34,612 nt of DNA from an uncultured Gammaproteobacteria bacterium (GTDB lineage Bacteria; Pseudomonadota; Gammaproteobacteria; UBA9214), in contig CAJQOV010000030.1 of assembly GCA_905480065.1 (NCBI GenBank), forward strand, positions 1 to 34,612, given 5' to 3'. The notes under the pieces are model-generated. The model saw only the letters and a list, made by a program, of their open reading frames with translations, was not told the DNA's origin and made no database searches. How positions within the stretch are numbered: the stretch's first letter is position 1; each line of letters begins with the position of its first letter. Below are positions 2,672-33,423 of the stretch, in pieces. Made by a program: the position numbers and the translations under genes.

Positions 2672-4006
2672 TTACGGCACCACGACGTCCACCGTTACCG
2701 AGCTGTCCACCGGGCCGGCCTGGTCGTAAGTGGCCGTGGCCGTATTGACGATGCTGGTGTCGCCGGTCTGCACCACGTAGTCGGCCGTGCAGTCGAGCGC
2801 GGCACCCGGTGCCAGCGATGCCGGCAGTGCGCTGCCACAGGCCAGTGCGCCGAGACCCGGCAGGAGGTCGCTGACGCTGACATTGGTCAGTGTGACATTG
2901 CCGTCGTTGGACAGGCTCATGCGGTAGGTCAGCGTGTCACCCTCGGTTACCGTGGCCGAACCATCCTCGTCGGCATTCGTGTCCAGCGACTTGTCCAGTG
3001 ACAGTACCGGCACATCTTCCAGCGCCAGGTCCTGATGCGCGCCGCCGGAAATGGCGTCGGCCTGCACCTCGGTCTCGCTCATGAACAGCAGGCTGTCATC
3101 GGTATCCGGGTCATCTGCTTCACACACCAGCGCCACGGTATACAGGCCGGGATAGATATAGCCGGTATCGTAGTGGTAGATGCCCGTGGTGCCATCGTAA
3201 TGCACCGCTGTTTCCAGCAACGGACGATCCGAAGGCGGGCAGATGCTGGTATCGGTGTCGATACAGATATCATCCGGCGTTATGCTGGCTGCGTCGCCGT
3301 CGTAGACATACACCCAGCAGGCGTCCGGCGTGTCCGGGTTGAGTTTTTCGCTACGCTGGTCGGTGACCTCGCCATAAATATACGAGCTGGCGAGGGTGGT
3401 ATCCAGGATGCGCAAGGTCGGGCGCAGAATGTAGTGGAAGTCAGCGCGTGGCTTGTTTGGCTGCGACAGCGTGATGGATTTGCGCAGGTCGAAGTCGATG
3501 GTGAAGTCGATCCAGCCGGTGTCATCGATGCTGAAGTTGCGGTTGAGCTTGAAACCGCTTTGCACGCAGCTGGGACATTTCACCAGGTAATCGCCGCCGG
3601 AGGTTTCGACGATGCGGGTATGGGCGGGGTCGATCACCAGCCGTATCCAGCTGTAGTCACCGGCAGCGAGCGGGATCTGGCCGAGCAGCATGGTCTTGCC
3701 GCCGACCAGCGATTTCAGCTCGATGTCGCGGTAGGGCAGGATGTTGTTCGGGTCGTCCGTGTTTTCCACGTTGTAGATGATGTCCCCTGAGCCATCGGCC
3801 GGGTGCACCTTGACCTGGGTAAAGCGCACCCATACCTCCGCGATGTCAGCGTCATTGACCGGGGCATCCGTGATGCGCAGTACCAGGCCAGTTGCGCTAC
3901 CCGAGGTAGAGGTGCTGCTGCTACCACCGCCACCGCAGGCGGCAAGCAGAACAGCTAACGTCGTCATCGCAAGAAGTTTCGCGAGCCGGGAGAAATATTT
4001 GTACAT
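2672..4006 (-). CDS. Lipoprotein with a DUF4382-like N-terminal domain and a DUF11/conserved-repeat-like C-terminal domain
   Basis: The start at 4006 (ATG) has AGGAA upstream. The lipobox reads MYKYFSRLAKLLAMTTLAVLLAAC/GGGG. LVLRITDAPVNDADIAEVWVRFTQVKVH is typical of DUF4382. The C-terminus (TLTYRMSLSNDGNVTLTNVSVSDLLPG...CTADYVVQTGD...VNTATA) looks like a DUF11-type repeat. The 70 extra codons of the ORF-track start at 4216 look non-coding. Confidence 0.75.
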   Translation of the reverse strand: MYKYFSRLAKLLAMTTLAVLLAACGGGGSSSTSTSGSATGLVLRITDAPVNDADIAEVWVRFTQVKVHPADGSGDIIYNVENTDDPNNILPYRDIELKSLVGGKTMLLGQIPLAAGDYSWIRLVIDPAHTRIVETSGGDYLVKCPSCVQSGFKLNRNFSIDDTGWIDFTIDFDLRKSITLSQPNKPRADFHYILRPTLRILDTTLASSYIYGEVTDQRSEKLNPDTPDACWVYVYDGDAASITPDDICIDTDTSICPPSDRPLLETAVHYDGTTGIYHYDTGYIYPGLYTVALVCEADDPDTDDSLLFMSETEVQADAISGGAHQDLALEDVPVLSLDKSLDTNADEDGSATVTEGDTLTYRMSLSNDGNVTLTNVSVSDLLPGLGALACGSALPASLAPGAALDCTADYVVQTGDTSIVNTATATYDQAGPVDSSVTVDVVVP

Positions 4007-4123
4007 GTACAGTTCCTCATATGAACGGGCGCGGTCAGGTCGCCGGATTATTATGCTGTGGTTACTTTGGCCAGCACTGTGCTCGAGGCACAGAAAACGT
4101 AAACAAACCGTTCGATCAGATAG

Positions 4124-4143
4124 TGTGCCGGAATTCCGGCACA
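4124..4143. promoter_or_regulatory. Perfect 20-bp palindrome in a divergent promoter region (candidate operator)
   Basis: TGTGCCGGAATTCCGGCACA is its own reverse complement. It lies between the divergent starts at 4006 (-) and 4272 (+). Confidence 0.3.
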
Positions 4144-4271
4144 GCGAACAGTGTCCAAAGGTAGTATCCAGAGAATCCATTTGAATTATCAGGGTATTTT
4201 CGCAATAGACCCACACGGGCCGGGTCCTGGGTTACATTGTGCACTGATTCCGCCAGCGCAAGAATTGATTC

Positions 4272-7200
4272 ATGGTGCAACTCCCTACCGTTTCTGAAGC
4301 CGATACCCGCGACGCCTTCGTGGCTACGCCGTTTGATGACTACGAGCTGCTGGATTTTGGCGCCGGTCGCAAGCTGGAGCGCTGGGGAGAATATCTGGTG
4401 GAGGGTCCGGATCGGCTCGCGACGGGCGCACCGGCAGAGAAGAACTGGAATGCCGACTGGGTCTATGTCGATGACGTCGGTACGCGCGGCCACTGGGAGC
4501 CGACGCGTAGCGGTCTGCCACGTGAATGGGCGGTGCGGTTAGGCGACCAGCCGGTGCTGTGCCGGCTGGGGCCGCGCGGGCAGGTCGGACTGAAGGGGCG
4601 CGATATCCCCTGTGCGCAATGGATCCGGCAGCGGATCGAGGGTTGCTATGACCTGGATGATATTCGCGTACTGAACCTGTTTGGTGGTAACGGCTATGTC
4701 TCGGCGCAGGCATTGAAGGCCGGTGCCAGCGTAGTCCACGTGGATTCCAGCGAGGAGATGCACGCGCTGGCGCGCCACATTGCCGGTCACGCCAACATCG
4801 AGTACGTGCGTGACAACGTCGTGGATTTCGTCGAAGACCTGCTGCGCCGCCAGCTGCGCTTCGACCTGATCATCCTGCCGATCCCGCCGACCGGGCATGG
4901 GCCAAAGGGGCAGTTCTGGGACCGCGAGGTGGACATGGCGCGGCTGGTAAAATACCTGCCGCGGCTGATTTCGAAAAACTGTCTCGGGGTATGGCTGTCC
5001 ACCGACAGCGGTGCGATTACCTGGAAGGCGGAGGGCCTGGGGCAGCTGCTGCGTGAGGCGCTGCCGGGTTGCACGATCGAGCCGCTGCACCTGGGCACGC
5101 AAACGCGCAGCGGCCGGGTGTTGCCGGCCGGGGTCGCGGCGCGCTGGTATGACGCGACCGAATTCCTCCAGACCAGCGGTCTGCCGCTGACGGCGGCACA
5201 GCTGGAGGAGCGGCTTGATATCCACATGATTTCGCTCGGCGCTGCAGAAGAGCCGGCGCGTGCACTCGCCGAATTTACCCGTGAGCAGCAGGATTTCGTG
5301 CTGCACTGGGTGAGTATCGTGGCGCGGACCAGTTCCGGCATGGCACTGAACTTCGTTTCTCACGTGTGCCCGGCGCTGCGCCTGATGGAACCTGCCGGCG
5401 TCGAGGCCTGGCTGCTGGCGTGCATGGATATCTATGACACCAGGGGCCTGCATCCTGCGGTGGCGATGTTCAGGGATGTGGAAAGCTTTGCGGTTGAATA
5501 CAAGGCGCGCACCACTGGCGTGGCGTTCGAGGACGTGGTCAATGTGCTGGAAATGTTTGTGCACGGGCTGAATGGCCGGCAACTGAAGATTGAATGTGCT
5601 GAACAGTGCTGTACCGACACCGAGACCATCTTCATCCCTGCCACGGTTTCCCGGTTTGAAGACAATGACGATAACTTCCAGCTCTACAAGGTCATGGTGG
5701 TACACCAGTGGGCACAGACCTGGTTCGGCACCTGGCGTATCGAGCCACAGGAAGTGTTTGGCCGCTTTCCCGACCGCGACCAGGCGCTGGCGTGCTTTCA
5801 TGTGCTGGAGACCCTGCGCCTGGATGCGCGCATCCGTGACATGTTGCCGGGTGTATACCGGCATATTGAACGCTTTCGCGCCGCCAGTACATTCACGCTC
5901 GACCCGGTATGGGAGGAGGCCGCGGGCCACCTTGCGCGCAGCGGGGCCGGCGTGGAGGACACGCTGGTGTGGCTGGCGCGCATGGTTGACCATCCCCTGC
6001 CGGGGGCATTGCTGTACCAGGGCGTGCTGAAACCGGAGGCCGTGGACAAGGTGCGCAAGGCGCGTATCGAGGCAGACAAGCAGTCGTTTCGTTTGCACCT
6101 GTTGCGGCTGGAGCAGGAGCTGCGCGAGGCGGAAGCGGCAGTCGAGGAGCCGCAGTTACAAGAGGATGCACAGGATGAGGCCGGTGAGCGCCGCTTGCCG
6201 TTTGAATTGCGTACCGTCGAGTCCGATGAATCCGTGGATGGTTTTGCCTTTGAAATGGAGCTGGATGGCAAGCCCATCGCGCCGCCGGATCAGGTCAAGG
6301 GCACCATGGCGTCGATTTTCCAGGACCTCGGAGAAATTCCGGAAGAGTATTTATATGCGGCCGGTGACGGCGCCTATGTGGCGGAGGCCATCGGCGAGCA
6401 GAGCGTCGAGGATGTCTGGAAAGGCACTTATCACGAGGAAGGCGCATTTCTCTATAACGAATGGGATTACGAGCGCCAGAACTACCGCAAGAACTGGGCG
6501 GTACTGCGTGAGCTGGAGATCAGTCCGCAGGATTCCCATTTTGTGCGTGACACGCTGGTCAAGTATCGCGGCCTGACTGCGCACCTGCGCCGCACCTTCG
6601 AGGCGCTGCGCGGCGAGGACAAACTGCTCAAGAAACAACCCTATGGCGACAATGTCGATATCGACGCACTGGTCGAGGCCTGGGCCGATACCAGCATGGG
6701 CATGGAGATGCCGGACCGCCTGTTCACCAAGAAGCACAAGCTGGAACGCGATATCGCAGTGATGTTCATGGTCGACATGAGTGGTTCCACCAAGGGCTGG
6801 ATCAACGATGCCGAGCGGGAATCGCTGGTGCTGCTGTGCGAGTCGCTGGAAACACTGGGAGATCGCTATGCCATCTACGGCTTTTCCGGCATGACGCGCA
6901 AGCGCTGCGAGGTGTACCGCGTCAAGCGCTTTGACGAGGAATACACCGACGAGGTGCGTGGACGCATTGCCGGTATCCGTCCGAAGGACTACACACGCAT
7001 GGGTGTAACCATCCGCCACCTGTGTCACCTGCTGGGACAGGTGGAGGCGCGTACCAAGCTGCTCGTTACCCTGTCCGACGGCAAGCCGGATGACTACGAT
7101 ACCTATCGCGGTGCCTATGGCATAGAGGACACGCGGCAGGCACTGATCGAGGCGCGCCGTAACGGCATTCATTCGTTCTGCATCACCATCGATACCGAGG

Positions 7201-7310
7201 CGAAGGACTACCTGCCGCACATGTACGGCGCCGTGAATTATGCGGTCATCGACGAGGTGCGCAAGTTGCCGTTGAAGGTGTCGGACATCTACCGGCGTCT
7301 GACTGCATAG
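4272..7310 (+). CDS. Fusion protein: N-terminal class I SAM-dependent methyltransferase-like domain plus NorD/CbbO-type VWA domain protein
   Basis: The N-terminal ~300 aa (LLDFGAGRKLERWG...VLNLFGGNGYVSAQALKAGASVVHVDSS...LIILPIPPTGHGPKGQFW) match the RlmI/RlmK-like SAM-MTase family. The remainder matches NorD/CbbO (LYKVMVVHQWAQTWFGTW...). The C-terminal VWA domain has an intact MIDAS motif, DMSGS at 6774..6788, and LSDGKPDDYD. The frame is continuous across the junction. Confidence 0.8.
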   Translation: MVQLPTVSEADTRDAFVATPFDDYELLDFGAGRKLERWGEYLVEGPDRLATGAPAEKNWNADWVYVDDVGTRGHWEPTRSGLPREWAVRLGDQPVLCRLGPRGQVGLKGRDIPCAQWIRQRIEGCYDLDDIRVLNLFGGNGYVSAQALKAGASVVHVDSSEEMHALARHIAGHANIEYVRDNVVDFVEDLLRRQLRFDLIILPIPPTGHGPKGQFWDREVDMARLVKYLPRLISKNCLGVWLSTDSGAITWKAEGLGQLLREALPGCTIEPLHLGTQTRSGRVLPAGVAARWYDATEFLQTSGLPLTAAQLEERLDIHMISLGAAEEPARALAEFTREQQDFVLHWVSIVARTSSGMALNFVSHVCPALRLMEPAGVEAWLLACMDIYDTRGLHPAVAMFRDVESFAVEYKARTTGVAFEDVVNVLEMFVHGLNGRQLKIECAEQCCTDTETIFIPATVSRFEDNDDNFQLYKVMVVHQWAQTWFGTWRIEPQEVFGRFPDRDQALACFHVLETLRLDARIRDMLPGVYRHIERFRAASTFTLDPVWEEAAGHLARSGAGVEDTLVWLARMVDHPLPGALLYQGVLKPEAVDKVRKARIEADKQSFRLHLLRLEQELREAEAAVEEPQLQEDAQDEAGERRLPFELRTVESDESVDGFAFEMELDGKPIAPPDQVKGTMASIFQDLGEIPEEYLYAAGDGAYVAEAIGEQSVEDVWKGTYHEEGAFLYNEWDYERQNYRKNWAVLRELEISPQDSHFVRDTLVKYRGLTAHLRRTFEALRGEDKLLKKQPYGDNVDIDALVEAWADTSMGMEMPDRLFTKKHKLERDIAVMFMVDMSGSTKGWINDAERESLVLLCESLETLGDRYAIYGFSGMTRKRCEVYRVKRFDEEYTDEVRGRIAGIRPKDYTRMGVTIRHLCHLLGQVEARTKLLVTLSDGKPDDYDTYRGAYGIEDTRQALIEARRNGIHSFCITIDTEAKDYLPHMYGAVNYAVIDEVRKLPLKVSDIYRRLTA

Positions 7311-19317: not shown

Positions 19318-21471
19318 ATGAACACGATCGCACACCTCGAAGCAGTTCCCACCGGCGTTGCGGCAATTCCGATGCAGCCGGCATCCCGGGATATCTGGGA
19401 AAAGAAGTACCGCCTGCAGGCCAAGGATGGCACGCCGGTCGACGAAACTATCGATTCCACCTATCAGCGCGTAGCGCGTGCGCTGGCGGATGTAGAAAGC
19501 ACACCCGAGGCGCGTGAAACCTGGTACCGGGAATTTCTCTGGGCGCTGCGTCATGGCGCCATTCCGGCCGGTCGCATCATATCCAATGCCGGTGCGCAGG
19601 AGCACAAGCCGGCCACCTCGACCATCAACTGCACGGTCTCCGGTATCGTCCGCGACTCCATGAATGACATCCTGGAGAAGGTGCACGAGGCGGGTCTGAC
19701 GCTGAAGGCCGGTTGCGGCATTGGTTACGAGTTTTCCACGCTGCGTCCGCGCGGCGCCTATGTCTCCGGTGCCGGCGCCTACACCTCCGGCCCGCTGTCG
19801 TTCATGGATATCTACGACAAGATGTGTTTTACCGTGTCATCCGCCGGTGGTCGGCGTGGTGCGCAGATGGCGACCTTCGATGTCGGGCACCCGGACGTCA
19901 TGGATTTTAACCGTGCCAAGCGCGAGGACGGGCGGCTGCGCCAGTTTAACCTGTCGCTGCTGATCACAACCGAGTTCATGGACGCCGTGCAGAGTGATGC
20001 GGACTGGAAGCTGGCCTTTCCGATCAGCCGCCAGGAGCTGGATGATGGTCTGGATCTGAATAATCCGGAACAGGTGATCTGGCGCGAGTGGCCATACAAG
20101 GGCGACTACGTGGCCAACAACGCCGGACTGGTGGCCTGCAAGGTCTACAAGAGCGTACCGGCGCGGCGCCTGTGGAACATGATCATGAGTTCCACCTACG
20201 ATTTCGCGGAGCCGGGTTTCATCCTGATCGACAAGGTCAACGAGATGAACAACAACTGGTTCTGCGAGAACATTCGCGCCACCAACCCGTGCGGCGAACA
20301 GCCGTTGCCCCCGTATGGTTCCTGCCTGCTCGGTTCGGTTAACCTGACCAAGTTCGTCAAGAACCCCTTTACCAGCCGTGCCGAGTTCAACTGGGAAGAA
20401 TTCCGCAAGGTAGTGGCCATCTTCACGCGCATGCTGGACAACGTGGTCGAGATCAATGGTCTGCCTCTGGCAGGACAACGTGACGAGATCATGCGCAAAC
20501 GCCGTCACGGTATGGGTTTTCTGGGGCTGGGTTCCACCGTCACCATGCTGCGCATGAAGTATGGCGAGCAGGATTCGGTAAAATTCACCGAGCGTGTCAG
20601 TCGCGAGCTGGCACTGACCGGGTGGCGGATAGCCCTGGAGCTGGCAAAGGAAAAGGGATCGGCTCCGATCATGGAGGAAGAATTCCAGGTCACCGAGGAA
20701 ATGTTGCGCAAGCGCCCGGACATGCGCCGCGATGGCTATGTGCCTGGTGACAAGGTCAAGGGCAAGGTGCTACACGCGCGCTACAGCCGCTATATGCAGC
20801 GTGTTGCCGAGGAGGCGCCGGAGCTGGCCAGCCAGCTTGCCGAGACCGGTGCCCGTTTCACCCATCACAGCTCGATTGCACCGACCGGTACAATCTCGCT
20901 GTCGCTGGCCAACAATGCCAGCAACGGCATTGAGCCGAGCTTCGCACACCACTATTTCCGTAACGTGATCCGCGAAGGCCGCAAGACCAAGGAGAAAATC
21001 GATGTATTCTCTTTCGAGCTGCTGGCCTACCGTGAGCTGGTCAATCCGAATGCGACTGCCAGCATGGAAGGGGATGGTGACAAGCTGCCGGATTATTTTA
21101 TTGCCGCAGACAATGTTACGCCGAAACAGCACGTCGATATCCAGGCCGCTGCGCAGATGTGGGTGGATTCCTCCATTTCCAAGACGGCAAACGTGCCCAC
21201 GGATTACCCGTTCGAGGACTTCAAGGATATCTACCTGTATGCCTACAAGCAGGGGCTGAAGGGATGTACCACGTTCCGCTTCAATCCGGAGGCGTTCCAG
21301 GGGGTGCTGGTCAAGGGCGAGGACCTGGAAAATACCACCTATGAGTTCACGCTCGAGGACGGTTCGAAGGTGAGCCTCAAGGGTAACGAAGAGGTCGAGT
21401 ACGACGGTGAGATGCATACCGCGGCCAACCTCTACGATGCTCTGAAAGAGGGCTATTACGGAAAATTCTGA
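19318..21471 (+). CDS. nrdJa: Adenosylcobalamin-dependent (class II) ribonucleotide reductase, large N-terminal part
   Basis: RNR catalytic core motifs are present: NPCGEQPLPPYGSCLLGSVNL (thiyl-radical Cys loop), STINCTVSG, and SSISKTANVP. Confidence 0.9.
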   Translation: MNTIAHLEAVPTGVAAIPMQPASRDIWEKKYRLQAKDGTPVDETIDSTYQRVARALADVESTPEARETWYREFLWALRHGAIPAGRIISNAGAQEHKPATSTINCTVSGIVRDSMNDILEKVHEAGLTLKAGCGIGYEFSTLRPRGAYVSGAGAYTSGPLSFMDIYDKMCFTVSSAGGRRGAQMATFDVGHPDVMDFNRAKREDGRLRQFNLSLLITTEFMDAVQSDADWKLAFPISRQELDDGLDLNNPEQVIWREWPYKGDYVANNAGLVACKVYKSVPARRLWNMIMSSTYDFAEPGFILIDKVNEMNNNWFCENIRATNPCGEQPLPPYGSCLLGSVNLTKFVKNPFTSRAEFNWEEFRKVVAIFTRMLDNVVEINGLPLAGQRDEIMRKRRHGMGFLGLGSTVTMLRMKYGEQDSVKFTERVSRELALTGWRIALELAKEKGSAPIMEEEFQVTEEMLRKRPDMRRDGYVPGDKVKGKVLHARYSRYMQRVAEEAPELASQLAETGARFTHHSSIAPTGTISLSLANNASNGIEPSFAHHYFRNVIREGRKTKEKIDVFSFELLAYRELVNPNATASMEGDGDKLPDYFIAADNVTPKQHVDIQAAAQMWVDSSISKTANVPTDYPFEDFKDIYLYAYKQGLKGCTTFRFNPEAFQGVLVKGEDLENTTYEFTLEDGSKVSLKGNEEVEYDGEMHTAANLYDALKEGYYGKF

Positions 21472-21523
21472 CCGCTCGCGCCCAGATGGCGTTTGCAGGC
21501 GGGTTGTTAATCAGGAGCACAGC

Positions 21524-22225
21524 ATGACTATACGTATCGAGAAGAAGATCGTCGGTTACAAGGTTGCGGACAAGGATGAATTGAAGCAGAACGAAACGGC
21601 GAAGGTTCCCGACCTGCACCGCCAGGACAATATCGTGCAGTTGCACGAACGGCTGGAACGCCCGGAGATGCTGATCGGTTCGACCTACAAGGTCAAGACG
21701 CCACTGACCGAGCACGCACTGTATGTGACCATCAACGATATTGTGCTCAATCACGGCACCGAGAATGAACTGCGCCGTCCGTTCGAGATCTTTATCAACT
21801 CCAAGAACATGGACCACTTCCAGTGGATTGTGGCGCTGACCCGGATTATCTCTGCCGTGTTCCGCAAGGGGGGTGACGTGACCTTCCTGGTGGAGGAGTT
21901 GCGCTCGGTGTTCGATCCGCGTGGTGGTTACTTCAAGAAGGGTGGCAAGTATATGCCGTCACTGGTGGCAGAAATCGGCGATGCCATTGAATGTCATATG
22001 CGCATGATCGGTCTGCTGAAGGATGATGGGCTCGACGAGCACCAGAAGAAACTGGTGGCCGAGAAGCGTGCCCAGTATGAAGCGTCCAGGGGTGGCATGC
22101 CGAGTGCCGATCCGGGTGATTTCCCGGAAGGCTCGCAGCTCTGCATGAAGTGTCAGACCAAGGCCGCGATTGTCATGGATGGCTGCCTGACCTGCCTGAA
22201 CTGTGGTGAGTCGAAGTGCGGCTAA
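21524..22225 (+). CDS. nrdJb: Class II ribonucleotide reductase C-terminal part (TSCPD-like region plus Cys-rich tail)
   Basis: ERPEMLIGSTYKVKTPLTEHALYVTINDIVL...PFEIFINSKNMDHFQWIVALTRIISAVFRKGGDV corresponds to the C-terminal part of NrdJ. The tail is CMKCQTKAAIVMDGCLTCLNCGESKCG. AGGAG RBS. This is the same split arrangement described for Pseudomonas aeruginosa nrdJab. Confidence 0.8.
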   Translation: MTIRIEKKIVGYKVADKDELKQNETAKVPDLHRQDNIVQLHERLERPEMLIGSTYKVKTPLTEHALYVTINDIVLNHGTENELRRPFEIFINSKNMDHFQWIVALTRIISAVFRKGGDVTFLVEELRSVFDPRGGYFKKGGKYMPSLVAEIGDAIECHMRMIGLLKDDGLDEHQKKLVAEKRAQYEASRGGMPSADPGDFPEGSQLCMKCQTKAAIVMDGCLTCLNCGESKCG

Positions 22226-23122: not shown

Positions 23123-24832
23123 ATGTATCTGGACCACTTCGACCTGAGAGAACGTCCCTTCTCGATCACACCCGATCCGCGCTTCCTGTATATGAGTGCG
23201 CGTCATCGCGAAGCATTGGCGCACCTCCTGTACGGCCTGGGTGAAGGCGGGGGGTTCGTGCAGCTGACCGGCGAGGTCGGCACCGGCAAGACCACGATTT
23301 GTCGCTGTCTGCTGGAACAGGTGCCGGACAATGTCGATATCGCCATGGTGCTCAATCCCAAGGTTACCGCGACCGAGCTGATTGCGACGGTATGTGACGA
23401 GCTGGGTGTCAGCTACCCGGCCGAAAACACCAGTATCAAGACCATGGTTGATATCCTCAATCGTTACCTGCTGGATGCCCATGCGCGTGGTCGTCGCACG
23501 GTGCTGATCATCGACGAGGCCCAAAACCTGTCAAGGGATGTGCTGGAGCAGGTACGCCTGCTGACCAACCTTGAAACACCGACGCAAAAGCTGTTGCAGA
23601 TCATCCTGATCGGGCAGCCGGAATTGCGGGAATTGCTGGCCCGTGAAGATATGCGTCAGCTGGCCCAGCGCGTTACCGCCCGTTACCACCTTGAACCGAT
23701 CAGTCGCGAGGAAACCGGCGCCTACATCCGCCATCGCCTGCAGATATGCGGGACGTCGAAAGTGCTGTTCAACAAGGGTGCGGTTGATCGAATACAGCAT
23801 TTGTCCGGCGGGATTCCGCGCCTGATCAACGTGCTGTGTGACCGTGCCATGCTGGGCGCCTATGTAGAGAGCAGGGCTGTGGTAGACGGGCGCGTGGTAC
23901 GCAAGGCTGCCCGCGAAGTGCTGGCGGAGGAGACCGGCGGAAACGGGTCCGCTGGTAGTCGCTTGCCGTGGGTGCTGACGGGCGCAGCGCTGCTGGTGCT
24001 GGCCGTGCTCGGTTACCTGTATCAGCCCTGGGGGACGTCACCAGCGGTTACGCCGACTGCGGCGGTGCAGCCGAAGCCAGCACCGGCCCCGGTCGAGGCG
24101 GTCGAGCCGGACCAGCAGAAACCGGAACTGGCGGCTGTGGTGCCGCTAGCCGGTGCCGACCCGCAGGCCGTCGCTGTCACAGCAGAAATTGCACCGCAAG
24201 AGATCGATCTCGATGAGCTGCTCTTGGCAGCAGACAGCGGCTGGTACCATGCAGCATGGACCGGATTGCTGCACTTGTGGGCGGTCGAATTGCCGCTGGA
24301 AGTCAGGCCGGATTTCTGTAATTACGCGCTGGAGTACGGTCTGCTGTGTTCCAGTGAGCAGGGTAACTGGAATACGGTCCGGCATACCAATCGTCCGGCC
24401 ATACTAAAGCTGGTAGATGCAGACGGGATCCGGGTGCCGGTGCTGTTGCAGCAACTGCAAGGCGAGCAGGCCATGCTGGTGCTGGGTGGTGAGCCTCATG
24501 CGATAGATATCAGCGTTATTGACCAGTACTGGTTCGGTGAGTACACGCTGCTGTTGCAGGCCCCCCCGGGCGGACGTTTGCTGCTCGGTGTGGGTGAACG
24601 CAATTCCGACGTGGCCTGGCTGCGCGAACAGCTGGAAAACGTGCAAGGGGTGAAGATTCTGTCCCCGGATCCCCAGCTGTTCGACTATCCACTGCAGAAA
24701 CAGGTGCTGGAGTTTCAGCGCAGTCGCGGACTGGTGGCTGATGGCATAGTTGGCAAGAACACTTTGATCCAGCTGAATTCTTCTTCCGGACGGGAGGGTG
24801 TGCCGGTGTTGCAAACGGTCGCGGTGGAGTAA
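23123..24832 (+). CDS. exeA: ExeA/GspA-family AAA ATPase with a C-terminal peptidoglycan-binding domain
   Basis: MYLDHFDLRERPFSITPDPRFLYMSARHREAL...LTGEVGTGKTT (Walker A)...VLIIDEAQNL (Walker B), then a central TM segment (LPWVLTGAALLVLAVLGYLY). The C-terminal PG_binding_1 motif is LQKQVLEFQRSRGLVADGIVGKNTL. Confidence 0.85.
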   Translation: MYLDHFDLRERPFSITPDPRFLYMSARHREALAHLLYGLGEGGGFVQLTGEVGTGKTTICRCLLEQVPDNVDIAMVLNPKVTATELIATVCDELGVSYPAENTSIKTMVDILNRYLLDAHARGRRTVLIIDEAQNLSRDVLEQVRLLTNLETPTQKLLQIILIGQPELRELLAREDMRQLAQRVTARYHLEPISREETGAYIRHRLQICGTSKVLFNKGAVDRIQHLSGGIPRLINVLCDRAMLGAYVESRAVVDGRVVRKAAREVLAEETGGNGSAGSRLPWVLTGAALLVLAVLGYLYQPWGTSPAVTPTAAVQPKPAPAPVEAVEPDQQKPELAAVVPLAGADPQAVAVTAEIAPQEIDLDELLLAADSGWYHAAWTGLLHLWAVELPLEVRPDFCNYALEYGLLCSSEQGNWNTVRHTNRPAILKLVDADGIRVPVLLQQLQGEQAMLVLGGEPHAIDISVIDQYWFGEYTLLLQAPPGGRLLLGVGERNSDVAWLREQLENVQGVKILSPDPQLFDYPLQKQVLEFQRSRGLVADGIVGKNTLIQLNSSSGREGVPVLQTVAVE

Positions 24833-24836
24833 GCGA

Positions 24837-25511
24837 ATGTCCTACATTCTCGATGCACTGAGAAAGGCAGACCGGGATCGTGTGCTGGGGGAAGTGCCTG
24901 ACCTGGAGGCTGCGCACTGGGGGCTTCGTCGCCCGGAGCGGTCCTGGCGCTGGTTGTGGATTGTGGTGGTGTTGCTGGTATTCAATGCCGGTTTGCTGGT
25001 GTATATGTTGAGCCGGAATACGGAGTTACCAGTGGAGGTATCGCATCCGCCAACGGTCCGGAATGTGCCGGCGTTGTCCCCGGCGGCGCCGGTTAGTCGT
25101 GGTCCCGCTGCGGTTGTACAGGAGTCGCCACAACCATCTCCCAGGATCTTGCGCCCCAAGGTTGCCGTCCAGCCGCATGTTGCACCCGTGCCGGCCGCCG
25201 TGCCGAAAGTACAGGGGGCTCCCGCTGCACGCGTAGTGACTGCGTCAGCCCCCCTGACTGCTGCGCCAGACAGCAATACTTCGGATCTGCCTGAGTGGGG
25301 TGAATTGCCGCTGGAATTTCGCAGCCAGTTTGTGCTGCCGCATATCGATGTGTACGTTTATGCTGAAGAACCGCAGCGGCGCTTTATCCTCGTGGATCTG
25401 AAGAAGTTCCGCGAGGGTGACACGCTTGCCAACGGCGCTGTGCTGGAGAAAATTACGCCTGCCTATCTTCAGCTCAAATACCAGGATACCCGTTTCCGGC
25501 TTGACCGCTAG
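24837..25511 (+). CDS. gspB: GspB/ExeB-like protein
   Basis: The N-terminus is MSYILDALRKADRDR. It has one TM helix and a Pro/Ala-rich linker. The C-terminus (LPHIDVYVYAEEPQRRFILVDLKKFREGDTLANGAVLEKI) is typical of the T2SS-B domain. The start lies 4 nt after the exeA stop. Confidence 0.7.
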   Translation: MSYILDALRKADRDRVLGEVPDLEAAHWGLRRPERSWRWLWIVVVLLVFNAGLLVYMLSRNTELPVEVSHPPTVRNVPALSPAAPVSRGPAAVVQESPQPSPRILRPKVAVQPHVAPVPAAVPKVQGAPAARVVTASAPLTAAPDSNTSDLPEWGELPLEFRSQFVLPHIDVYVYAEEPQRRFILVDLKKFREGDTLANGAVLEKITPAYLQLKYQDTRFRLDR

Positions 25512-27029: not shown

Positions 27030-27380
27030 TCAGACCATTTCCTTCAGGTTCTTCAGCGGCAATACCTTGACAACATTCCGGGCCGGCTTGGCCTTGAATG
27101 TCATCTCTTGACCGGTGAACGGGTTGGTACCCTTGCGTGCCTTGGTGGCAGGTTTACGAACGACCTTGACCTTCATCAGTCCCGGAACGGTATATACCCC
27201 GGGCCCTTTCTTGAGGTCGCGTTTCATTAGTGTGGCGAGGTTATCAAAGACGGCGCCAACATCTTTCTTGGTGAGGCCAGTCTTGTCAGAGATGAAATTA
27301 AGCGTTTCAGATTTAGTTGTTGGTTTTGTTGCAGCTTTTGCAGCTGTCTTTTTCTTGGCTGTCGCTTTCTTTTTTGCCAT
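27030..27380 (-). CDS. HU/IHF-family DNA-binding protein with a Lys/Ala-rich N-terminal extension
   Basis: GAGGAG RBS before the ATG at 27380. The tail MAKKKATAKKKTAAKAATKPTTK is followed by an HU fold (LTKKDVGAVFDNLATLMKRDLKKG...RKGTNPFTGQEMTFKAKPARNVVKVLPLKNLK). Confidence 0.8.
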   Translation of the reverse strand: MAKKKATAKKKTAAKAATKPTTKSETLNFISDKTGLTKKDVGAVFDNLATLMKRDLKKGPGVYTVPGLMKVKVVRKPATKARKGTNPFTGQEMTFKAKPARNVVKVLPLKNLKEMV

Positions 27381-28182
27381 TCGAAGTAGCTCCTCGTTGA
27401 ATGATAGATAAAACAGCATGCGTAAGATAGCACATAAAATTAAATGTGAAAGCGTTTTGAAGTTCTAAAAAGCCTTTTTTTGTAGGATTTTATGGCTTCA
27501 GAACCGGGTGCTTCAGCTGTTTACGCTGACGACGCCTCTGTGAGCGGTTGCTGTGTGAGCTGGTCTGGTGGCGGGAATGGTGTGTGACACAGGCCCGAAT
27601 GACACGTTTTGCGAACAGGTCAGCAATAATAATACACTGTAAATAAAGGCATAATCGCGTTATCTCCAGGACATCGGCATGCAGGTGATCGGGCATCGAC
27701 AATGCCTGCCCGATTCGCAGGTGTGCATGCCAGGCAGGAATGCCTGTGTCCAGCACGGCATCTGCAACCGGGGCCGGTTCATCCGGATAGCAGCAGCCCA
27801 TCATCTGGCTGCTTCGGGAGCAGCGGCTGCTCACCAACGGGGCGCGTGCCGGACGCCTGCGCTTTCGACAAGTCCCGCCGCTGCGTGTGCCGGGTGCCGC
27901 GGCTGTGCTGCCGGCGAATGCGCCCTGACCGCCAGGGGGGATCTTTCCTGGCGCGTAATAAAGTACCTAAAACATCAAATAAAACAATGAATTAAATGGT
28001 TATATTATTATCCGGGCGGACGTCCTGTAACCCCGGCCTATGCGCGCATGGGGAGGCCTGGCACACGCTGCCTTTACACCTAAATAACAGTTCCCGCCAG
28101 CCGATACGCTGGGAGCAGCCTATTGCCGCCTCGGTATTTGCCGGGTGGTACAACTTACAGACTTTCACAGCGAAGAGTGGAT

Positions 28183-31100
28183 ATGCGCGCCGCACCCAAA
28201 AAGACCGAAGACAGAAAAATTCTCCAGGAGCTCGTTCCGCTGAATGCGTTGTCAGAGGAGCGCTTCCAGGAACTGGCCAGCAAGATCATCATCGAGGAGG
28301 TGAAGGCTGGTCGCTACCTGTTCCGCCAGGGTGATCGCGATAACCAGTCAATCTACCTGCTGGACGGGAAGGTCAACCTGATCGATGGCTTCCGCAAGGT
28401 GGTCGGTGAAGTGGAGGCGGGTACCGATATCAGTCGCTACCCGATCGCCGGACAGCAACCCAGGCCATTTTCCGCACGTGTGGTCAAGAAGGCTGTGATC
28501 GCGCGCATCGATTCCGGCCTGCTTGATGTTTTCCTGACCTGGGATCAGTCCAGCACCGCCGAGGTAATGGAAATCGGGGTGGACGAAAACAATGACTGGA
28601 TGACCCGCCTGCTGCAATCCGAGGCATTCTGCCAGTTACCACCGGCAAAATTGCAGGGACTGCTGATGAAGATGAGGCCAGTCTCGGTCAGCTGCGGCGA
28701 AGTTGTCATCGAAGAGGGAAGCGAGGGCGATTACTTTTACACAATCCATGAAGGTCGTTGCGTGGTTACCCGCACGGACAAGAGCACAGGAATGGTTCAG
28801 ACGCTGGCTGAATTGTCTGATGGCGATTCGTTTGGCGAGGAAGCACTGGTTTCGAGCGGTACCCGCAATGCAACCATTACCATGTTGACAGACGGGCAGC
28901 TAATGCAGCTGGCAAAGCGGGACTTCGAGGAGTTGCTCCACAAGGAGCTGGTCAAGCATGTCAGCCTGGAGCAGTCCGAGCTGCTGGTGCAGGAAGGAGC
29001 AGTCTGGGTCGATGTGCGCACCCCGGATGAATACCAGCAGGGGTCCTTCGAGGACAGTGTAAATATTCCACTTTCTTCCCTGCGTGGTGAATTGCCAGAG
29101 CTGGTGTTCAATGCGAAATACATTATTTGTTGCGATACCGGACGGCGCAGCGAATCTGCCGGGTTTCTCCTGAGTCACAAGGGCTTCGACGTCTATGTGC
29201 TGGAAGGCGGAATCAGTGGCAAGCAGAGCGATGCAGATGAGTCCATGGACGACGGGGTATTTGCGGCGGACTTGCGTGACCCAGTGGTCACTCTGGCAAG
29301 TGATACTGCTGAATTATTTCCGGATACCCCCTGGGGCGTGGCGGGGGCAGTAGCCAGCGCAGAAGCCACAGTAGACGCCGGCACAGATCCCGCAGCAGAC
29401 GCAAGCGAACAGTTATTGCGGTTGCAGTCCGAGTACGATGCCTTGCACGGCCAATATGAAGCGTTGCTGGTTGTGCAGCAACAGCAGGATGTGGCAAAAG
29501 AGAGTCTCGAGAATCAGCTTGAGCAGTTGCGCGGCGAGCTCGGTGAATCTGCTGAAAAGCTGACAGAAATATTCACGCGTAGCTCGGGACTGGACGAGGA
29601 AAGACAGTTGTTGCGTGAACAATATGCTGCATTGCAGGAAGAACATGCGGATATGTTGTCTACGCTACAGGCAGATCTCGACAAGGAACGACATCATGCG
29701 CAGCATTTGCAGCGCGAGCTGGAAACAATAACCGGCGAGCGTGCCATGCTTGGCGAGCAGGTGGAATCCGGGCGTCTGGATTTGCAGACAACTCTCGACA
29801 CGGTGAAATCGGAGCTGGATGAGTCGCGGCGGAAGATTGCGATGTTTGAATCCCGTCTGGATGAGGTCTCGTCAGAGCGTGAGCAATTGCAGAAGGAGAA
29901 CCGCGAACTTAACAGCGAGCTCGCCGGCTTGCAGGCAATGAATGACAGTGCCGGCGGTGAACTGGAAAAACGTGATGAGGTGCTGGATCAGTTGCGAGCC
30001 GGAAATGCGGCGCTTGAGCAGCAGCTTGAGTCGGTCCGTGCAGATCTGGCTGAACGCCAGTTGCAGCTCGATTCTGTAACGGCAGAGTCGACTGACCGAC
30101 TAGAGGCGCTGCAGCACCAGTACGATGAACAGCTGGTTCAACTGAAACAAATGCAGGATCTGCTGGCTGGAGAATCAAAAGATAATGCACAGGCATCAGC
30201 CGCTATAACCAGCCTGCAGGAAGAAAACAATCATCTGCGCAGCTCCATGCGTGAGTTGAATTCCAGGATCGCGCAACAATTCGAACAGATTGAGAACCTG
30301 GGCGCGGATCGCCGGGCAATCGATGATCTGAACTCGAAACAGCAGCTGGAGTGGGAAAAAGAGCGTGATGCATTGCAGGTGCAATTGGCAGAACTCAACG
30401 CCTTGTCTGCACGGTTACAGGATGAGCGGTTGCGTGAACAGGAGGAATTGCAACAGACCAGGGAAAGTTTCGAGAAGCAGCACCTGGAGCAGGTCGACAG
30501 GTACAATGCCGCGCTGGAAAAACATGAACAGCAGTTTGCAGAGATGCGGAGTTCACTGTCGGTAAAGAATGAAGAGCTCGATCTTGCCAGGCAGGAACAG
30601 CAACATCTGCAGAAACAACTCGTCGAAAGCGTGGCGGAAAATTCGAATATCGAGGAGAAGGTAACGGCATTACAGGCGGAAATAACCAGGCTTGCAGAAG
30701 GGTCAGATCAGCAAATCACGGAGTTGCAGGGACAGATCCAGGCGGGTGAACAGAATGTTCTGCAGCTGCAGAACGAGGTCGCCAATAAAGATGAACAGCT
30801 GACCGCGCTGCGACTGGAGATTAACCAGCATGAACTCGCAAGCACGGTTCACGTGCAGGAGCTGGACCTGCTGCGTGCACAGTTGCAGGAAATGCAGGGC
30901 GCACATGAGTTGCACGGTGAGCAGGTGCGAAATCTTGAGCAGAGTATCCAGGAGGCGGCTCGCAAGGCGCACGAGGATCTCAAGCGCAAGAATGATAACG
31001 AAAAGGAATTGCAGGGCCAGGTCGAGCGCCTGCGCAAAAAACTCGAACAGGTTACCGGCGATTACCAGAAATCGCGCAAGGATGCGCAGGACAATGTTGA

Positions 31101-32982
31101 TCAGCTGCGCGAGGAACTGCATGCCGAACGCCAGGCCCGTGATGACGAGCGGGCACAAATGGCTGCCCGGCAGCGTGAACTGAAGGAGCAGCTGACGGCG
31201 GTAGCTTCCGAGCATGAGGTAAATTTCAGTAACCAGTCCGGTGTGATTGAGGAAGCAATCGATGCCGCCCGGAAAGATGAGCGAGCCCGTCTGCAGGGCG
31301 TCATGGACACCCATGCCGCAACCGAGTCGTTACTGGAGCAAGTGCAGCAGGAACTGCGCCAGGCGCGTACCGAGCTGGCCGAATACCGTCGGCTGGAAAA
31401 AGATCGCAGACAGGGTGATGTCGAACTCATAGAGGAGCAGAACCAGCAGGCCGAGGCTGCGATCAGCCAGCTGCATACCCAGCTGAAGCAGCTCACGGAA
31501 GAGCGTGACGACGCGCTTGAGCAACAGATTACCTTGCGCGAGAGAATGGATGCACTGCGCGGCGAGGTCGAGGTTGCGCGTGGCCTGATGAATGCATCTG
31601 CCCAGGGCTGTCTCGAAGATCCGGTACAACTGCGCAAGCAGCTGGATGAAACGCGCAAGAATGTAGAAATCGCCGTGCGTCTGCGTGCCGAGGCAGAAGC
31701 GGCGCGTGACCGGCTGCAGGATGAGTGTGATCGCCTGCTGGTGCAGGTTGGAGGCGGACAGGGTCAGGGAGCGTTCAGTAACACATCTGCACCGGTAATC
31801 CAGCCTGAATCGATGGCCAAGGCAGTTTACGAACCGGCCGCAGCGACCCGGAAAGAAAAGCCGGCTGCTGGCAAGTCACGGCCGCAATCGCCCGCAACTG
31901 ACCAGAAACGCACATGGTCCCGCTGGCTGTTTCCTGCAATCAGTATGGCTATCCTGGTCGTGTCCGGCGTGCTTGTCTGGTCACTGCTCGGTGAATACCC
32001 GTCGTTACAGGATGAAACGTCGATGGATGAGGCGTCGTCTGCAGACGTTGTATTACCTGTGCAAAGCGTGCCAAACCCGCAGCAGTCGTCAGTATTGCCG
32101 GACACGGCGAGAACTGAGCAGTCTTCCCGGCCGGGCGTGAGCCCTGCGCCGCTGGTGGTAGAGCCAGCGCATGAGCCGGATGCAGTGGTCCCAGATCCCG
32201 CGCCAGCGCAAGCGGAAAAGGCGCCCGTGGTAGCAGTGGCGCCAGCGCCGGTCGTGCGTACATTCAGCGACAGTCTGAAGAGCGGTGGTAATGGACCTCG
32301 TATGGTGCAACTTGCGCCAGCGACCTTCCAGATGGGCAGCGTGGGCAATTCAATCAATTCTGAAGAAGTGCCACGCCACGATGTGACGCTGGGAGCGTAT
32401 TCAATCAGTAGTCATGAAGTGACCTTTGCTGATTATGATCGTTACGCACGCGCTACCGGGCAACGCCTGCCGTATGACGAATCCTGGGGCAGGGGCAAGC
32501 AGCCAGTGATCAATGTATCCTGGAAAGATGCTCAGGGTTACGTGAAATGGCTGTCTGTGCAAACCGGAAATACCTATCGTCTGCCCACCGAGGCAGAGTG
32601 GGAGTACGCTGCACGTGCCGGCAATGTCGCCAGCTACTGGTGGACAGAGGTGTACGAAACCATACCCGCGAACTGCTTCAATTGCGGCAGCAAATGGGAT
32701 GGCGCACGAACTGCGCCGGTTGGCCAGTTCGCTGCAAACAGCCTCGGACTCTACGACATGGCCGGTAATGTGCAGGAGTGGACGGCGGACTGTTACCATC
32801 AAAATTATGTCGGTGCGCCGGCCGATGGCAGTGCCTGGGAGGGCGTGGATTGTTCGCAACGGGTGGTCAGGGGTGGCGCGTACTCCAGTCCCCTGAATAC
32901 ATTGCGCAGCGCAAATCGTGCACAGCTGGCGGAGGATACCCGTCTCGACAACCTTGGCTTCCGGGTAGTCCGCGCAGAGTGA
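28183..32982 (+). CDS. Giant multidomain membrane protein: 2x cNMP-binding, rhodanese, long coiled coil, TM helix, FGE/SUMF1-like domain
   Basis: cNMP-binding domain 1 is at about 28231..28515. cNMP-binding domain 2 is at about 28612..28940 and contains GDSFGEEAL. The rhodanese domain is 28996..29220, with active loop CDTGRRS at 29131..29151. A heptad-rich E/Q/L/R segment runs about 29407..31749. The TM helix WSRWLFPAISMAILVVSGVLVWSLLG is at 31915..31992. A Pro-rich linker follows. The FGE-sulfatase-like domain at about 32257..32979 has RLPTEAEWEYAARAG, GLYDMAGNVQEW and RVVRGGAY. The ATG at 28183 is preferred over the TTG at 28123. Confidence 0.85.
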   Translation: MRAAPKKTEDRKILQELVPLNALSEERFQELASKIIIEEVKAGRYLFRQGDRDNQSIYLLDGKVNLIDGFRKVVGEVEAGTDISRYPIAGQQPRPFSARVVKKAVIARIDSGLLDVFLTWDQSSTAEVMEIGVDENNDWMTRLLQSEAFCQLPPAKLQGLLMKMRPVSVSCGEVVIEEGSEGDYFYTIHEGRCVVTRTDKSTGMVQTLAELSDGDSFGEEALVSSGTRNATITMLTDGQLMQLAKRDFEELLHKELVKHVSLEQSELLVQEGAVWVDVRTPDEYQQGSFEDSVNIPLSSLRGELPELVFNAKYIICCDTGRRSESAGFLLSHKGFDVYVLEGGISGKQSDADESMDDGVFAADLRDPVVTLASDTAELFPDTPWGVAGAVASAEATVDAGTDPAADASEQLLRLQSEYDALHGQYEALLVVQQQQDVAKESLENQLEQLRGELGESAEKLTEIFTRSSGLDEERQLLREQYAALQEEHADMLSTLQADLDKERHHAQHLQRELETITGERAMLGEQVESGRLDLQTTLDTVKSELDESRRKIAMFESRLDEVSSEREQLQKENRELNSELAGLQAMNDSAGGELEKRDEVLDQLRAGNAALEQQLESVRADLAERQLQLDSVTAESTDRLEALQHQYDEQLVQLKQMQDLLAGESKDNAQASAAITSLQEENNHLRSSMRELNSRIAQQFEQIENLGADRRAIDDLNSKQQLEWEKERDALQVQLAELNALSARLQDERLREQEELQQTRESFEKQHLEQVDRYNAALEKHEQQFAEMRSSLSVKNEELDLARQEQQHLQKQLVESVAENSNIEEKVTALQAEITRLAEGSDQQITELQGQIQAGEQNVLQLQNEVANKDEQLTALRLEINQHELASTVHVQELDLLRAQLQEMQGAHELHGEQVRNLEQSIQEAARKAHEDLKRKNDNEKELQGQVERLRKKLEQVTGDYQKSRKDAQDNVDQLREELHAERQARDDERAQMAARQRELKEQLTAVASEHEVNFSNQSGVIEEAIDAARKDERARLQGVMDTHAATESLLEQVQQELRQARTELAEYRRLEKDRRQGDVELIEEQNQQAEAAISQLHTQLKQLTEERDDALEQQITLRERMDALRGEVEVARGLMNASAQGCLEDPVQLRKQLDETRKNVEIAVRLRAEAEAARDRLQDECDRLLVQVGGGQGQGAFSNTSAPVIQPESMAKAVYEPAAATRKEKPAAGKSRPQSPATDQKRTWSRWLFPAISMAILVVSGVLVWSLLGEYPSLQDETSMDEASSADVVLPVQSVPNPQQSSVLPDTARTEQSSRPGVSPAPLVVEPAHEPDAVVPDPAPAQAEKAPVVAVAPAPVVRTFSDSLKSGGNGPRMVQLAPATFQMGSVGNSINSEEVPRHDVTLGAYSISSHEVTFADYDRYARATGQRLPYDESWGRGKQPVINVSWKDAQGYVKWLSVQTGNTYRLPTEAEWEYAARAGNVASYWWTEVYETIPANCFNCGSKWDGARTAPVGQFAANSLGLYDMAGNVQEWTADCYHQNYVGAPADGSAWEGVDCSQRVVRGGAYSSPLNTLRSANRAQLAEDTRLDNLGFRVVRAE

Positions 32983-33054: not shown

Positions 33055-33423
33055 GTGTCCGACGTTTCAACCATAACAATCTGCCGGCTGGACGAGCTGG
33101 ATCACGGTGACAGCCGTGGATTCACCCTGGAGCAGGCCGGGAAATTGCACGCTATCTTTGTAGTGAGGCAGGCCGGCAGGGTATATGCGTACCTGAACCG
33201 GTGCCCGCACACCGGCGCACCGCTGGACTGGGTGCCGGACCGGTTTCTCGATCTGGATGGCACACATATCCAGTGTGCCAATCATGCCGCCCTGTTTCGT
33301 ATCGAGGATGGTGCCTGTCTTGCCGGTCCCTGTAACGGGACTGGCCTCGAGCCGCTTGCTGTCGAAATCAATGCCGGGCTGGTACAGCTTCGGGCCGGCT
33401 ATATCATTCCCACGCCGCGTTGA
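33055..33423 (+). CDS. Rieske (2Fe-2S) domain protein
   Basis: CPHTG...CANHAALF provides the CxH...CxxH Rieske ligands. GTG start. Confidence 0.8.
   Translation: MSDVSTITICRLDELDHGDSRGFTLEQAGKLHAIFVVRQAGRVYAYLNRCPHTGAPLDWVPDRFLDLDGTHIQCANHAALFRIEDGACLAGPCNGTGLEPLAVEINAGLVQLRAGYIIPTPR

Follow-up and report, generated by a model that had tools for sequence, protein, structure and literature searches.

A giant protein of uncultured Gammaproteobacteria joins a cyclic-nucleotide-binding and rhodanese head to a PvdO-like, predicted periplasmic domain via a long coiled-coil rod

The stretch of DNA analysed here (34,612 nt; "the window") is contig CAJQOV010000030.1 of an uncultured Gammaproteobacteria bacterium (assembly GCA_905480065.1), in which one giant gene (28183..32982, + strand) comprises 1,599 codons plus stop. 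An uninterrupted + strand open reading frame (ORF) runs from 28123 to 32982; translation from the ATG at 28183 yields 1,599 amino acids (aa), with an N-terminus (MRAAPKK...) that agrees with those of all homologs, the C-terminus being shared as well. A purine-rich GAAGAG resembling a ribosome-binding site lies 7-12 nt before this ATG. In a preliminary description, made from the sequence alone, the product was read as five module types in a fixed order: cyclic nucleotide monophosphate (cNMP)-binding domains, rhodanese, coiled-coil rod, transmembrane (TM) helix and FGE-like domain. Pfam, AlphaFold2 (AF2) and sequence computation all agree with this order, and Pfam and NCBIfam scans found no kinase, cyclase, ATPase or DNA-binding domain, whose absence had also been pointed out.

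The N-terminal head holds two cyclic-nucleotide-binding (CNB) domains and a rhodanese. Pfam cNMP_binding matched two stretches (E 5.7e-27) and Pfam Rhodanese matched residues 270-346 (E 1.1e-12). In the AF2 model of residues 1-440, built from a 50-sequence alignment (mean predicted local distance difference test score (pLDDT) 76), two CNB beta-barrels with flanking helices occupy residues 36-110 and 165-243, and the alpha/beta rhodanese domain (258-351) follows directly. CNB-A (residues ~14-123; 28222..28551, + strand) was delimited by the second Pfam stretch, the AF2 barrel at 36-110 and the alignment, and its phosphate-binding cassette is conserved but degenerate (SRYPIAxQQPRPxSAR, without Gly-Glu). 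CNB-B (residues ~139-254; 28597..28944, + strand), delimited by Pfam (167-254), alignment, AF2 and Foldseek, carries a canonical cassette, GDSFGE[ED]ALVS...R-N-A-[TS] (GDSFGEEALVS..R228-N-A-T in this protein), in which G218, E219, R228, N229 and A230 are invariant or nearly so in the homolog alignment. CNB-B has both the Gly-Glu and the Arg of a ligand-competent cassette; CNB-A lacks the Gly-Glu. Foldseek returned the tandem CNB-A/B of PKG/PKA regulatory subunits as the best matches of the head (E 1e-16), in agreement with phmmer (E 4e-19). On the other hand, the head differs from the PKA/PKG regulatory subunit, its best structural match and likewise a bearer of the Gly-Glu...Arg cassette in CNB-B, in several respects: i) the cassette of CNB-A is degenerate; ii) there is no kinase partner or inhibitor sequence; iii) the module is fused to a rhodanese and membrane-tethered; iv) an invariant Asn comes directly after the cassette Arg of CNB-B. 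The corresponding residue of characterised cAMP/cGMP binders is Ala, Thr or Ser, and an Asn there is, to our knowledge, atypical of them; because of this invariant Asn, we leave the ligand of CNB-B unassigned.

The rhodanese domain (residues 258-351; 28954..29235, + strand) was called from the Pfam match, its invariant residues and AF2. Its active loop, C316-C317-D-T-G-R-R-S323 (29128-29151, + strand), is essentially invariant among homologs, with C317, T319, R322 and S323 strictly so. The putative catalytic Cys starts a six-residue active-site loop (C317-D-T-G-R-R-S323), which has the CxxGxR[ST] form of active single-domain sulfurtransferases. In size, fold and loop form the domain resembles the single-domain rhodaneses GlpE, PspE and YgaP; unlike them, it is fused C-terminally to a cNMP module, has a Cys-Cys doublet ahead of its loop and misses the equivalog cutoffs (34 vs 102 bits). 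Thus two cNMP domains followed by a rhodanese with a CDTGRRS loop, as initially described, are recovered alike by Pfam, alignment and AF2.

The rod begins behind an acidic Ala-rich linker (residues 352-402; 29236..29388, + strand) whose consensus has no conserved positions and whose residues 351-401 are predicted to be disordered (pLDDT <50). From ~390 to 1190 the hydrophobic 3.5-residue periodicity is 4-10 times background and residues 420-1200 include a single proline, in agreement with the very long heptad-rich rod noticed earlier: a heptad-periodic helix of ~790 aa. Its first part, a variable coiled-coil spacer (residues 403-900; 29389..30882, + strand), was recognised by heptad periodicity, poor conservation and length variation. 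In 120 homologs, 240 to 943 residues (median 625) lie between the rhodanese loop and the [RK]KN[DE]NE[KR] motif of the following block, with all modulo-7 classes populated and no preference for heptad multiples; tandem DNA repeats, as a source of rod length, were absent from the window. The second part, a fixed membrane-proximal helical block (residues 901-1190; 30883..31752, + strand), was defined by AF2, motif spacing and alignment and is free of indels: the distance from RKNDNEK to EVEVARG was exactly 193 aa in all 71 homologs that have both motifs, mean column identity was 71% in an alignment of 12 diverse members, and AF2 predicted helices at 901-1014, 1022-1140 and 1147-1190 (pLDDT >90) that break exactly at the conserved loops. 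Pfam searches of the block, including the rods of four homologs, returned only sub-threshold matches to generic coiled-coil families; its profile found 0 matches among PDB sequences and Foldseek of the 900-1290 model found 0 in PDB. The block is a family-specific module. A hidden domain in the rod was rejected on these same Pfam, profile and Foldseek outcomes, and an SMC/MukB-like identity, which calls for an ABC-type ATPase head and a hinge, was rejected for lack of an ATPase domain, SMC models having matched residues 493-771 only, at 45-47 bits against cutoffs of 567-729.

Next to the membrane lies a basic Pro/Ala/Ser-rich linker, predicted to be cytoplasmic (residues 1191-1247; 31753..31923, + strand; pLDDT 37-50, called from composition and K+R count). 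It is followed by the sole hydrophobic segment of the protein (Kyte-Doolittle 2.2), a single TM helix at residues ~1248-1270 (31924..31992, + strand; 2.1-2.2, AF2 helix 1249-1270), which homologs also have (1.8-2.7). The 25-residue flanks of this helix hold seven K+R on the N side versus none on the C side, where there are five D+E, and the protein has no N-terminal signal peptide. The charge bias predicts an N-in/C-out topology, in line with the earlier proposal of a single TM helix with K/R on its N side and a cytoplasmic head and rod. The predicted periplasmic part opens with a Pro/Ala-rich linker of ~95 aa (residues 1271-1365; 31993..32277, + strand), in which residues 1286-1365 are 18.8% Pro; the distance from the TM helix to the CxxC motif described below is 226-274 aa across homologs.

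The C-terminal domain (residues 1366-1599; 32278..32979, + strand) matched Pfam FGE-sulfatase at residues 1372-1597 (E 3.2e-54), so that the FGE/SUMF1 fold first assigned to it stands, while an identity as FGE does not. Its best solved relative is Pseudomonas aeruginosa PvdO (5HHA; E 1.3e-41, ~45% identity over ~230 residues); ToxD, PorK/GldK and true FGEs matched much more weakly (FGE structures E 1e-17). The NCBIfam PvdO equivalog NF051459 scored 176 bits against a cutoff of 500, and by sequence the domain is PvdO-like but not PvdO. Four Cys are invariant (C1498, C1501, C1537 and C1557): C1537 and C1557 align with PvdO cysteines (ADCxH and C..RGG), whereas PvdO has no Cys in the stretch that lies opposite C1498-x-x-C1501 (ANCF[ND]CG; 32674-32685, + strand), a motif specific to the giant-protein family. 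Moreover, the segment that holds the catalytic Cys in FGE reads RGGAY[ST]SPLxxLRS, Cys-free, in all 22 aligned homologs. The Cu(I)-binding catalytic Cys pair of FGE near its C-terminus (C336/C341 of the human enzyme) is replaced here, and FGE chemistry was rejected on this ground despite the common Pfam family (PF03781) and fold. EgtB/OvoA chemistry was rejected as well: the fold and PF03781 are again shared, but Pfam found no DinB domain (EgtB/OvoA have an N-terminal DinB_2 with a 3-His iron site) and the EgtB/OvoA models scored 48-55 bits against cutoffs of 360-400.

With PvdO the domain has in common the FGE fold, a periplasmic location (predicted here), the lack of the FGE catalytic Cys pair and two cysteines. 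Unlike PvdO, a small soluble Sec-exported protein encoded in the pvd cluster, it forms the C-terminus of a TM-anchored protein of 1,599 aa, bears an extra invariant CxxC and has no pyoverdine genes nearby, its neighbours being HU-like, TerB, GspA/B, Rieske and BASS genes. An exhaustive search of 1.84 billion representatives placed all relatives with >60% identity to the CxxC domain in the giant-protein family; the shorter ones were N-terminally truncated fragments that retain the fixed block, and other architectures for this domain were rejected, none having been found among these relatives. The next tier (<=51% identity) consisted mostly of unrelated multi-FGE-domain proteins. Several of these, among them P0121 (4,448 aa) and P0124 (3,008 aa), carry 9-12 tandem FGE-sulfatase-type domains, an unrelated and apparently unexplored architecture.

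The preliminary description had raised an assembly chimera or an interrupted ORF as a concern and proposed a search for homologs of the same domain order. Among 5.8 billion proteins, at least 120 clusters have the same three Pfam domains in the same order (37-68% identical, 1,203-1,931 aa; from JGI, ENA, NCBI and Logan assemblies). The identical protein (P0001) was found on 41 contigs and a 99% identical one (P0002) in ENA, from independent assemblies. In addition, a pattern scan of 185,579 species-representative genomes yielded 63 genomic loci, all in metagenome-assembled genomes (MAGs) and none in an isolate genome, labelled Gammaproteobacteria, Ectothiorhodospiraceae, Thiogranum or Thiohalobacter and sampled in marine/estuarine sediment, hydrothermal and soil surveys; the nearest by neighbour-gene identity (L005) is an uncultured Ectothiorhodospiraceae MAG. 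Since the same architecture recurs in >120 clusters and 63 loci, the gene is real and intact and no assembly chimera. Four contigs (L010, L039, L046 and L049) belong to MAGs labelled Halobacteria archaeon or Bathyarchaeota, yet the locus on them is clearly gammaproteobacterial, and these labels are probably due to binning contamination. Where databases name the protein, it is a "SUMF1/EgtB/PvdO family nonheme iron enzyme" from "Gammaproteobacteria bacterium" MAGs. The architecture had been said to match no characterised protein, and full-text literature searches found no published description of the five modules together; the family is present in databases under a generic name and is uncharacterised, and all its members come from uncultured Gammaproteobacteria of the sulfur-oxidiser type. 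All its domains belong to known superfamilies; what would be new is the helical block of fixed length and the PvdO fold with a CxxC. FGE, PvdO proper, EgtB/OvoA, Pycsar, SMC and FimV/HubP share with it no defining feature beyond fold-level similarity.

Two of the loci, on a Sedimenticolaceae chromosome and in one other MAG, encode short forms of 658-673 aa at the syntenic position (L059 6696-8717 and L058 6864-8840). Their generic coiled coil, ~300 aa long, leads through a TM helix and a linker to the same CxxC PvdO-like domain (55% identity); the cNMP domains, the rhodanese and the fixed block are lacking. Because the short forms have just these parts, coil, TM helix and PvdO-like domain appear to be the conserved core, with head and fixed block as additions of the long form only. 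A gamma-glutamyltranspeptidase gene lies upstream of the short forms.

One explanation built on this core is a membrane-anchored PvdO-like periplasmic oxidoreductase (via the CxxC, possibly with a metal), for which rod and head would only position, cluster or stabilise the domain. The periplasmic domain is the most conserved part of the protein and the only globular part common to long and short forms, and its invariant CxxC is absent from PvdO. PvdO itself, the nearest characterised relative, is genetically necessary for dihydropyoverdine to be oxidised, but the purified protein was inactive and contained no cofactor, so that no in vitro activity has been demonstrated (PMC6206403). The domain has neither the Cu-binding Cys pair of FGE nor the DinB domain of EgtB, substrate-pathway genes are missing from the surroundings, and the conservation of the cNMP/rhodanese head (55-72% identity) would be left unexplained. 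We regard an oxidoreductase with a purely positional rod as unlikely, though still with an appreciable chance.

For the long form, we tentatively favour a bitopic inner-membrane tether or co-localisation scaffold over a conformational signal relay, for three reasons: i) head and membrane are set apart by distances that differ several-fold between homologs and show no heptad phasing; ii) a predicted disordered linker of ~50 residues parts the head from the rod; iii) the TM helix sits between a predicted disordered basic linker and a Pro-rich stalk. Such traits are typical of tethers and spacers. The constant length of the block beside a variable spacer, the lack of any Pfam or PDB relative of this block and the headless short forms also speak for a tether, as does the ability of FGE-fold domains to act without FGE chemistry: purified PvdO was inactive and had no cofactor (PMC6206403), and the FGE-fold type VI secretion immunity protein Tsi3 is a pure binder (bioRxiv 10.1101/2021.05.21.445229). 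In such a scaffold, the rod would dimerise and keep the head tens of nanometres off the membrane, its variable part setting a species-specific distance (the ~500 residues of this protein would span ~70 nm as an extended coiled coil at 0.15 nm/residue), while the fixed block would serve as an oligomerisation or partner-docking module at the membrane. The cNMP/rhodanese head would be accessory regulatory or catalytic cargo, in which cNMP binding to CNB-B may change how accessible the adjacent rhodanese Cys is or how it binds partners, as a local cis switch similar to that of the PKA regulatory subunit. On the other side of the membrane, the PvdO-like domain on its stalk would anchor the assembly to a component of the envelope, or act on it, by binding or by thiol/disulfide chemistry; by analogy with TonB/TolA, the Pro/Ala-rich stalk of ~95 residues could in principle reach across much of the periplasm.

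The same features bear on the alternative of a transmembrane transducer, close to the membrane-spanning signalling device of the preliminary description, in which cNMP/persulfide status would be relayed inside-out to the PvdO-like domain, or a periplasmic ligand or redox state outside-in. Coiled coils transmit signals in chemoreceptors and histidine kinases, and the two ends of the protein do hold sensor-type domains and a conserved extracytoplasmic domain, respectively, which are strongly conserved and in the long form always inherited together. However, the helical link of conserved length and register between sensor and output that typifies chemoreceptor/HAMP-type proteins is absent: rods of anything between 240 and 943 aa occur, not restricted to heptad multiples, and predicted disorder at 351-401 and 1191-1248, together with the Pro-rich segment 1271-1365, splits head, rod, TM helix and periplasmic domain from one another. 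A lone TM helix flanked by disorder would be a poor conformational conduit, and the short forms manage without a head. We consider such a relay improbable, and the signalling device first proposed sits badly with the unconstrained rod and the predicted disordered segments that flank it.

A fixed, docking-type block next to the membrane would also fit client recruitment by a cytoskeletal or polar-landmark protein similar to FimV, HubP or TipN, with the periplasmic domain held on the cell wall and the rod recruiting clients in a cNMP-dependent manner. The giant protein has a fitting bitopic topology, with a very long coiled-coil/acidic region in the cytoplasm and a globular anchor in the periplasm, and CbpA of Pseudomonas aeruginosa is a cAMP-binding protein of polar localisation. 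By analogy, the overall logic of FimV/HubP and TonB/TolA resembles that of the giant protein, in which a single TM helix joins a globular end in the periplasm to a very long, non-globular stretch in the cytoplasm and the periplasmic spacer is Pro-rich. On the other hand, orientation is opposite to FimV/HubP, the periplasmic domain being C-terminal here; FimV/HubP/TonB show no sequence similarity to the protein, which has no LysM, TPR or TonB_C domain; and Pfam and NCBIfam found neither the FimV C-terminal motif nor any known domain for peptidoglycan binding, such as LysM or SPOR. A polar landmark would moreover overlap heavily with the tether and differ only in its proposed cellular role; we give it a small chance.

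A more specific form of the tether would be a novel envelope-spanning link in sulfur-oxidising Gammaproteobacteria that couples redox/sulfur chemistry across the membrane: within one polypeptide, a thiol/disulfide-active CxxC PvdO-like domain on a Pro-rich stalk that spans the periplasm would be linked to a cyclic-nucleotide-gated, persulfide-carrying rhodanese 30-130 nm inside the cell, with the species-specific rod as ruler, the 290-aa block as a new module for docking or oligomerisation, and co-localisation rather than allostery as the principle. We regard it as unlikely.

Several points weigh against the tether: i) the invariant Asn behind the cassette Arg means that the ligand of CNB-B may be other than cAMP or cGMP; ii) how the three helices in the fixed block are placed relative to one another is not settled by the AF2 model (predicted template modelling score 0.31); iii) "disordered" for residues 351-401 and 1191-1248 stands for low pLDDT plus composition; iv) we infer that the rod dimerises, that the head binds a ligand and has sulfurtransferase activity, that there is a target in the periplasm and that no coupling passes through the membrane; v) homologs share 55-87% identity in the head and likewise in the periplasmic domain, and the two never separate in the long form, and this co-conservation could reflect a functional coupling that a pure tether does not need.

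Should the tether hold, it would represent spatial cyclic-nucleotide signalling in bacteria, with a PKA-R-like module placed by its own anchoring rod, and would show the FGE/PvdO fold put to a use other than that of FGE, on a scaffold that spans the envelope; it would also give a function to a conserved giant gene of abundant uncultured sulfur oxidisers of sediments and vents. Two modules are testable in isolation, namely the helical block of 290 aa, which has no indels, and the PvdO fold in its CxxC form, and the family could inform on the function of PvdO-type domains. The protein is of relevance to bacterial second-messenger signalling, coiled-coil scaffolds and sulfur-oxidiser biology.

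The neighbour proteins encoded in the window were used as queries against the 63 loci. A widely conserved order emerged: RNR - TSCPD - GspA-like - GspB-like - FKBP (minus strand) - TerB - HU-like (minus strand) - giant gene - (PfkB) - Rieske - (BASS/PanS-like). Of the 63 loci, 43 have the HU-like gene and 48 have the Rieske gene behind the giant gene or its short form, while RNR is 85-91% identical across these genomes. The HU-like and Rieske genes are thus kept, which answers in part the earlier proposal to check conservation of the neighbourhood. Since the loci stem from a fairly narrow clade, however, the synteny may persist by descent, and with PfkB inserted in some loci it is weak evidence for a functional link.

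This context also bears on an anti-phage effector akin to Pycsar/CBASS, in which cNMP would trigger membrane or envelope damage. A cNMP-binding domain is indeed joined with a TM helix here and PADLOC returned weak matches, but the latter were confined to LmuB/JetC coiled-coil arms, with no Pycsar or CBASS model matched. The window contains no nucleotide cyclase, adjacent or otherwise, its remaining genes are housekeeping (cbb3 oxidase, ccoG, Cu-ATPase, DsbD-like), and the synteny conserved in 40-48 loci, none of them in a mobile context, is consistent with vertical inheritance. An anti-phage role is extremely improbable.

Downstream, 72 nt behind the giant gene, lies the small Rieske [2Fe-2S] gene (33055..33423, + strand; Pfam E 2.7e-12), whose product would be cytoplasmic because it has no signal peptide. 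The Rieske gene also follows the short form, behind PfkB in L058; this is the only hint of a real link, and we treat the Rieske gene as context. The PfkB-family kinase gene between giant and Rieske genes was seen in some loci (L017 13394-14275 and L040 13264-14154), where an ABC-2 transporter pair comes after the BASS gene. The start/stop coupling of Rieske and BASS genes noted before is present in the window as a TTGA at 33420-33423, in which the Rieske TGA stop overlaps the first possible TTG start of the BASS/PanS-like gene; an in-frame GTG follows at 33429, and the protein scored 355 bits on the PanS model (cutoff 400).

Upstream, an intergenic region of 802 nt separates the giant gene from the divergent HU-like gene (27030-27380, minus strand). 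The preliminary description had read it as a structured non-coding leader of 800 nt; the length is right, while structure and leader find no support. Over a stretch of 110-128 nt (27381-27508), >30 loci show 72-90% identity, including those whose giant protein is no more than ~40% identical. On the minus strand it holds an A-tract, TTCACA, a spacer, an extended -10 TGCTATCTT, a ~40-nt untranslated region (UTR) and a GAGGAG ribosome-binding site, and it reads as a strong promoter of the HU-like gene. The HU-like protein itself has a Lys/Ala-rich N-terminal tail. The rest of the spacer is unconserved apart from ~100 nt before the giant start in close relatives: this proximal region (28080..28182, + strand), conserved only in the closest (L005/L006) and containing the GAAGAG motif, probably holds the promoter and 5'UTR of the giant gene. 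Rfam gave no match, either across the window at the gathering threshold or within 27300-28300 at E<=1. Folding of 27510-28182 was modestly better than that of shuffled sequences (z = -2.35, 20 shuffles), and only two short inverted repeats were found in the upstream region.

The spacer is long (568-1,038 nt) in all 31 measurable loci. Ten loci have an intact 145-aa NTF2/SnoaL-like ORF on the minus strand between the HU-like and giant genes (L008 7241-7678(-), L033 3205-3642(-), L032, L037, L035, L044, L025, L057, L023 and L018), and decayed NTF2-like remnants occur in three more (L002, L040 and L004). Tblastn at E<=10 found no such remnant in the spacer of the window, which nonetheless measures 764-802 nt; a loss of the NTF2-like gene there is what we infer from the relatives. 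The intergenic region is most simply read not as a leader RNA but as a pair of promoters together with room that in relatives is, or once was, taken up by a small gene.

Other genes of the window merit brief mention. At 19318-22225, the gene for the RNR large subunit (717 aa) is followed by a separate 233-aa TSCPD ORF; many loci keep this pair at 78-91% identity, suggestive of an RNR split from its TSCPD tail. At 23123-25511, two overlapping genes encode a GspA-like AAA+/peptidoglycan-binding protein and a protein similar to GspB, and the window has no further gene of type II secretion; among NCBIfam models, the GspA-like ATPase scored best on the XrtA/PEP-CTERM-associated ATPase (293 bits, cutoff 324.5). 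Finally, a 1,012-aa ORF at 4272-7310 gave only a sub-threshold methyltransferase match (24 bits, cutoff 27) and has no other annotation, and the adjoining 514-aa ORF (2672-4216, minus strand) contains DUF4382/DUF7507/DUF11 domains.

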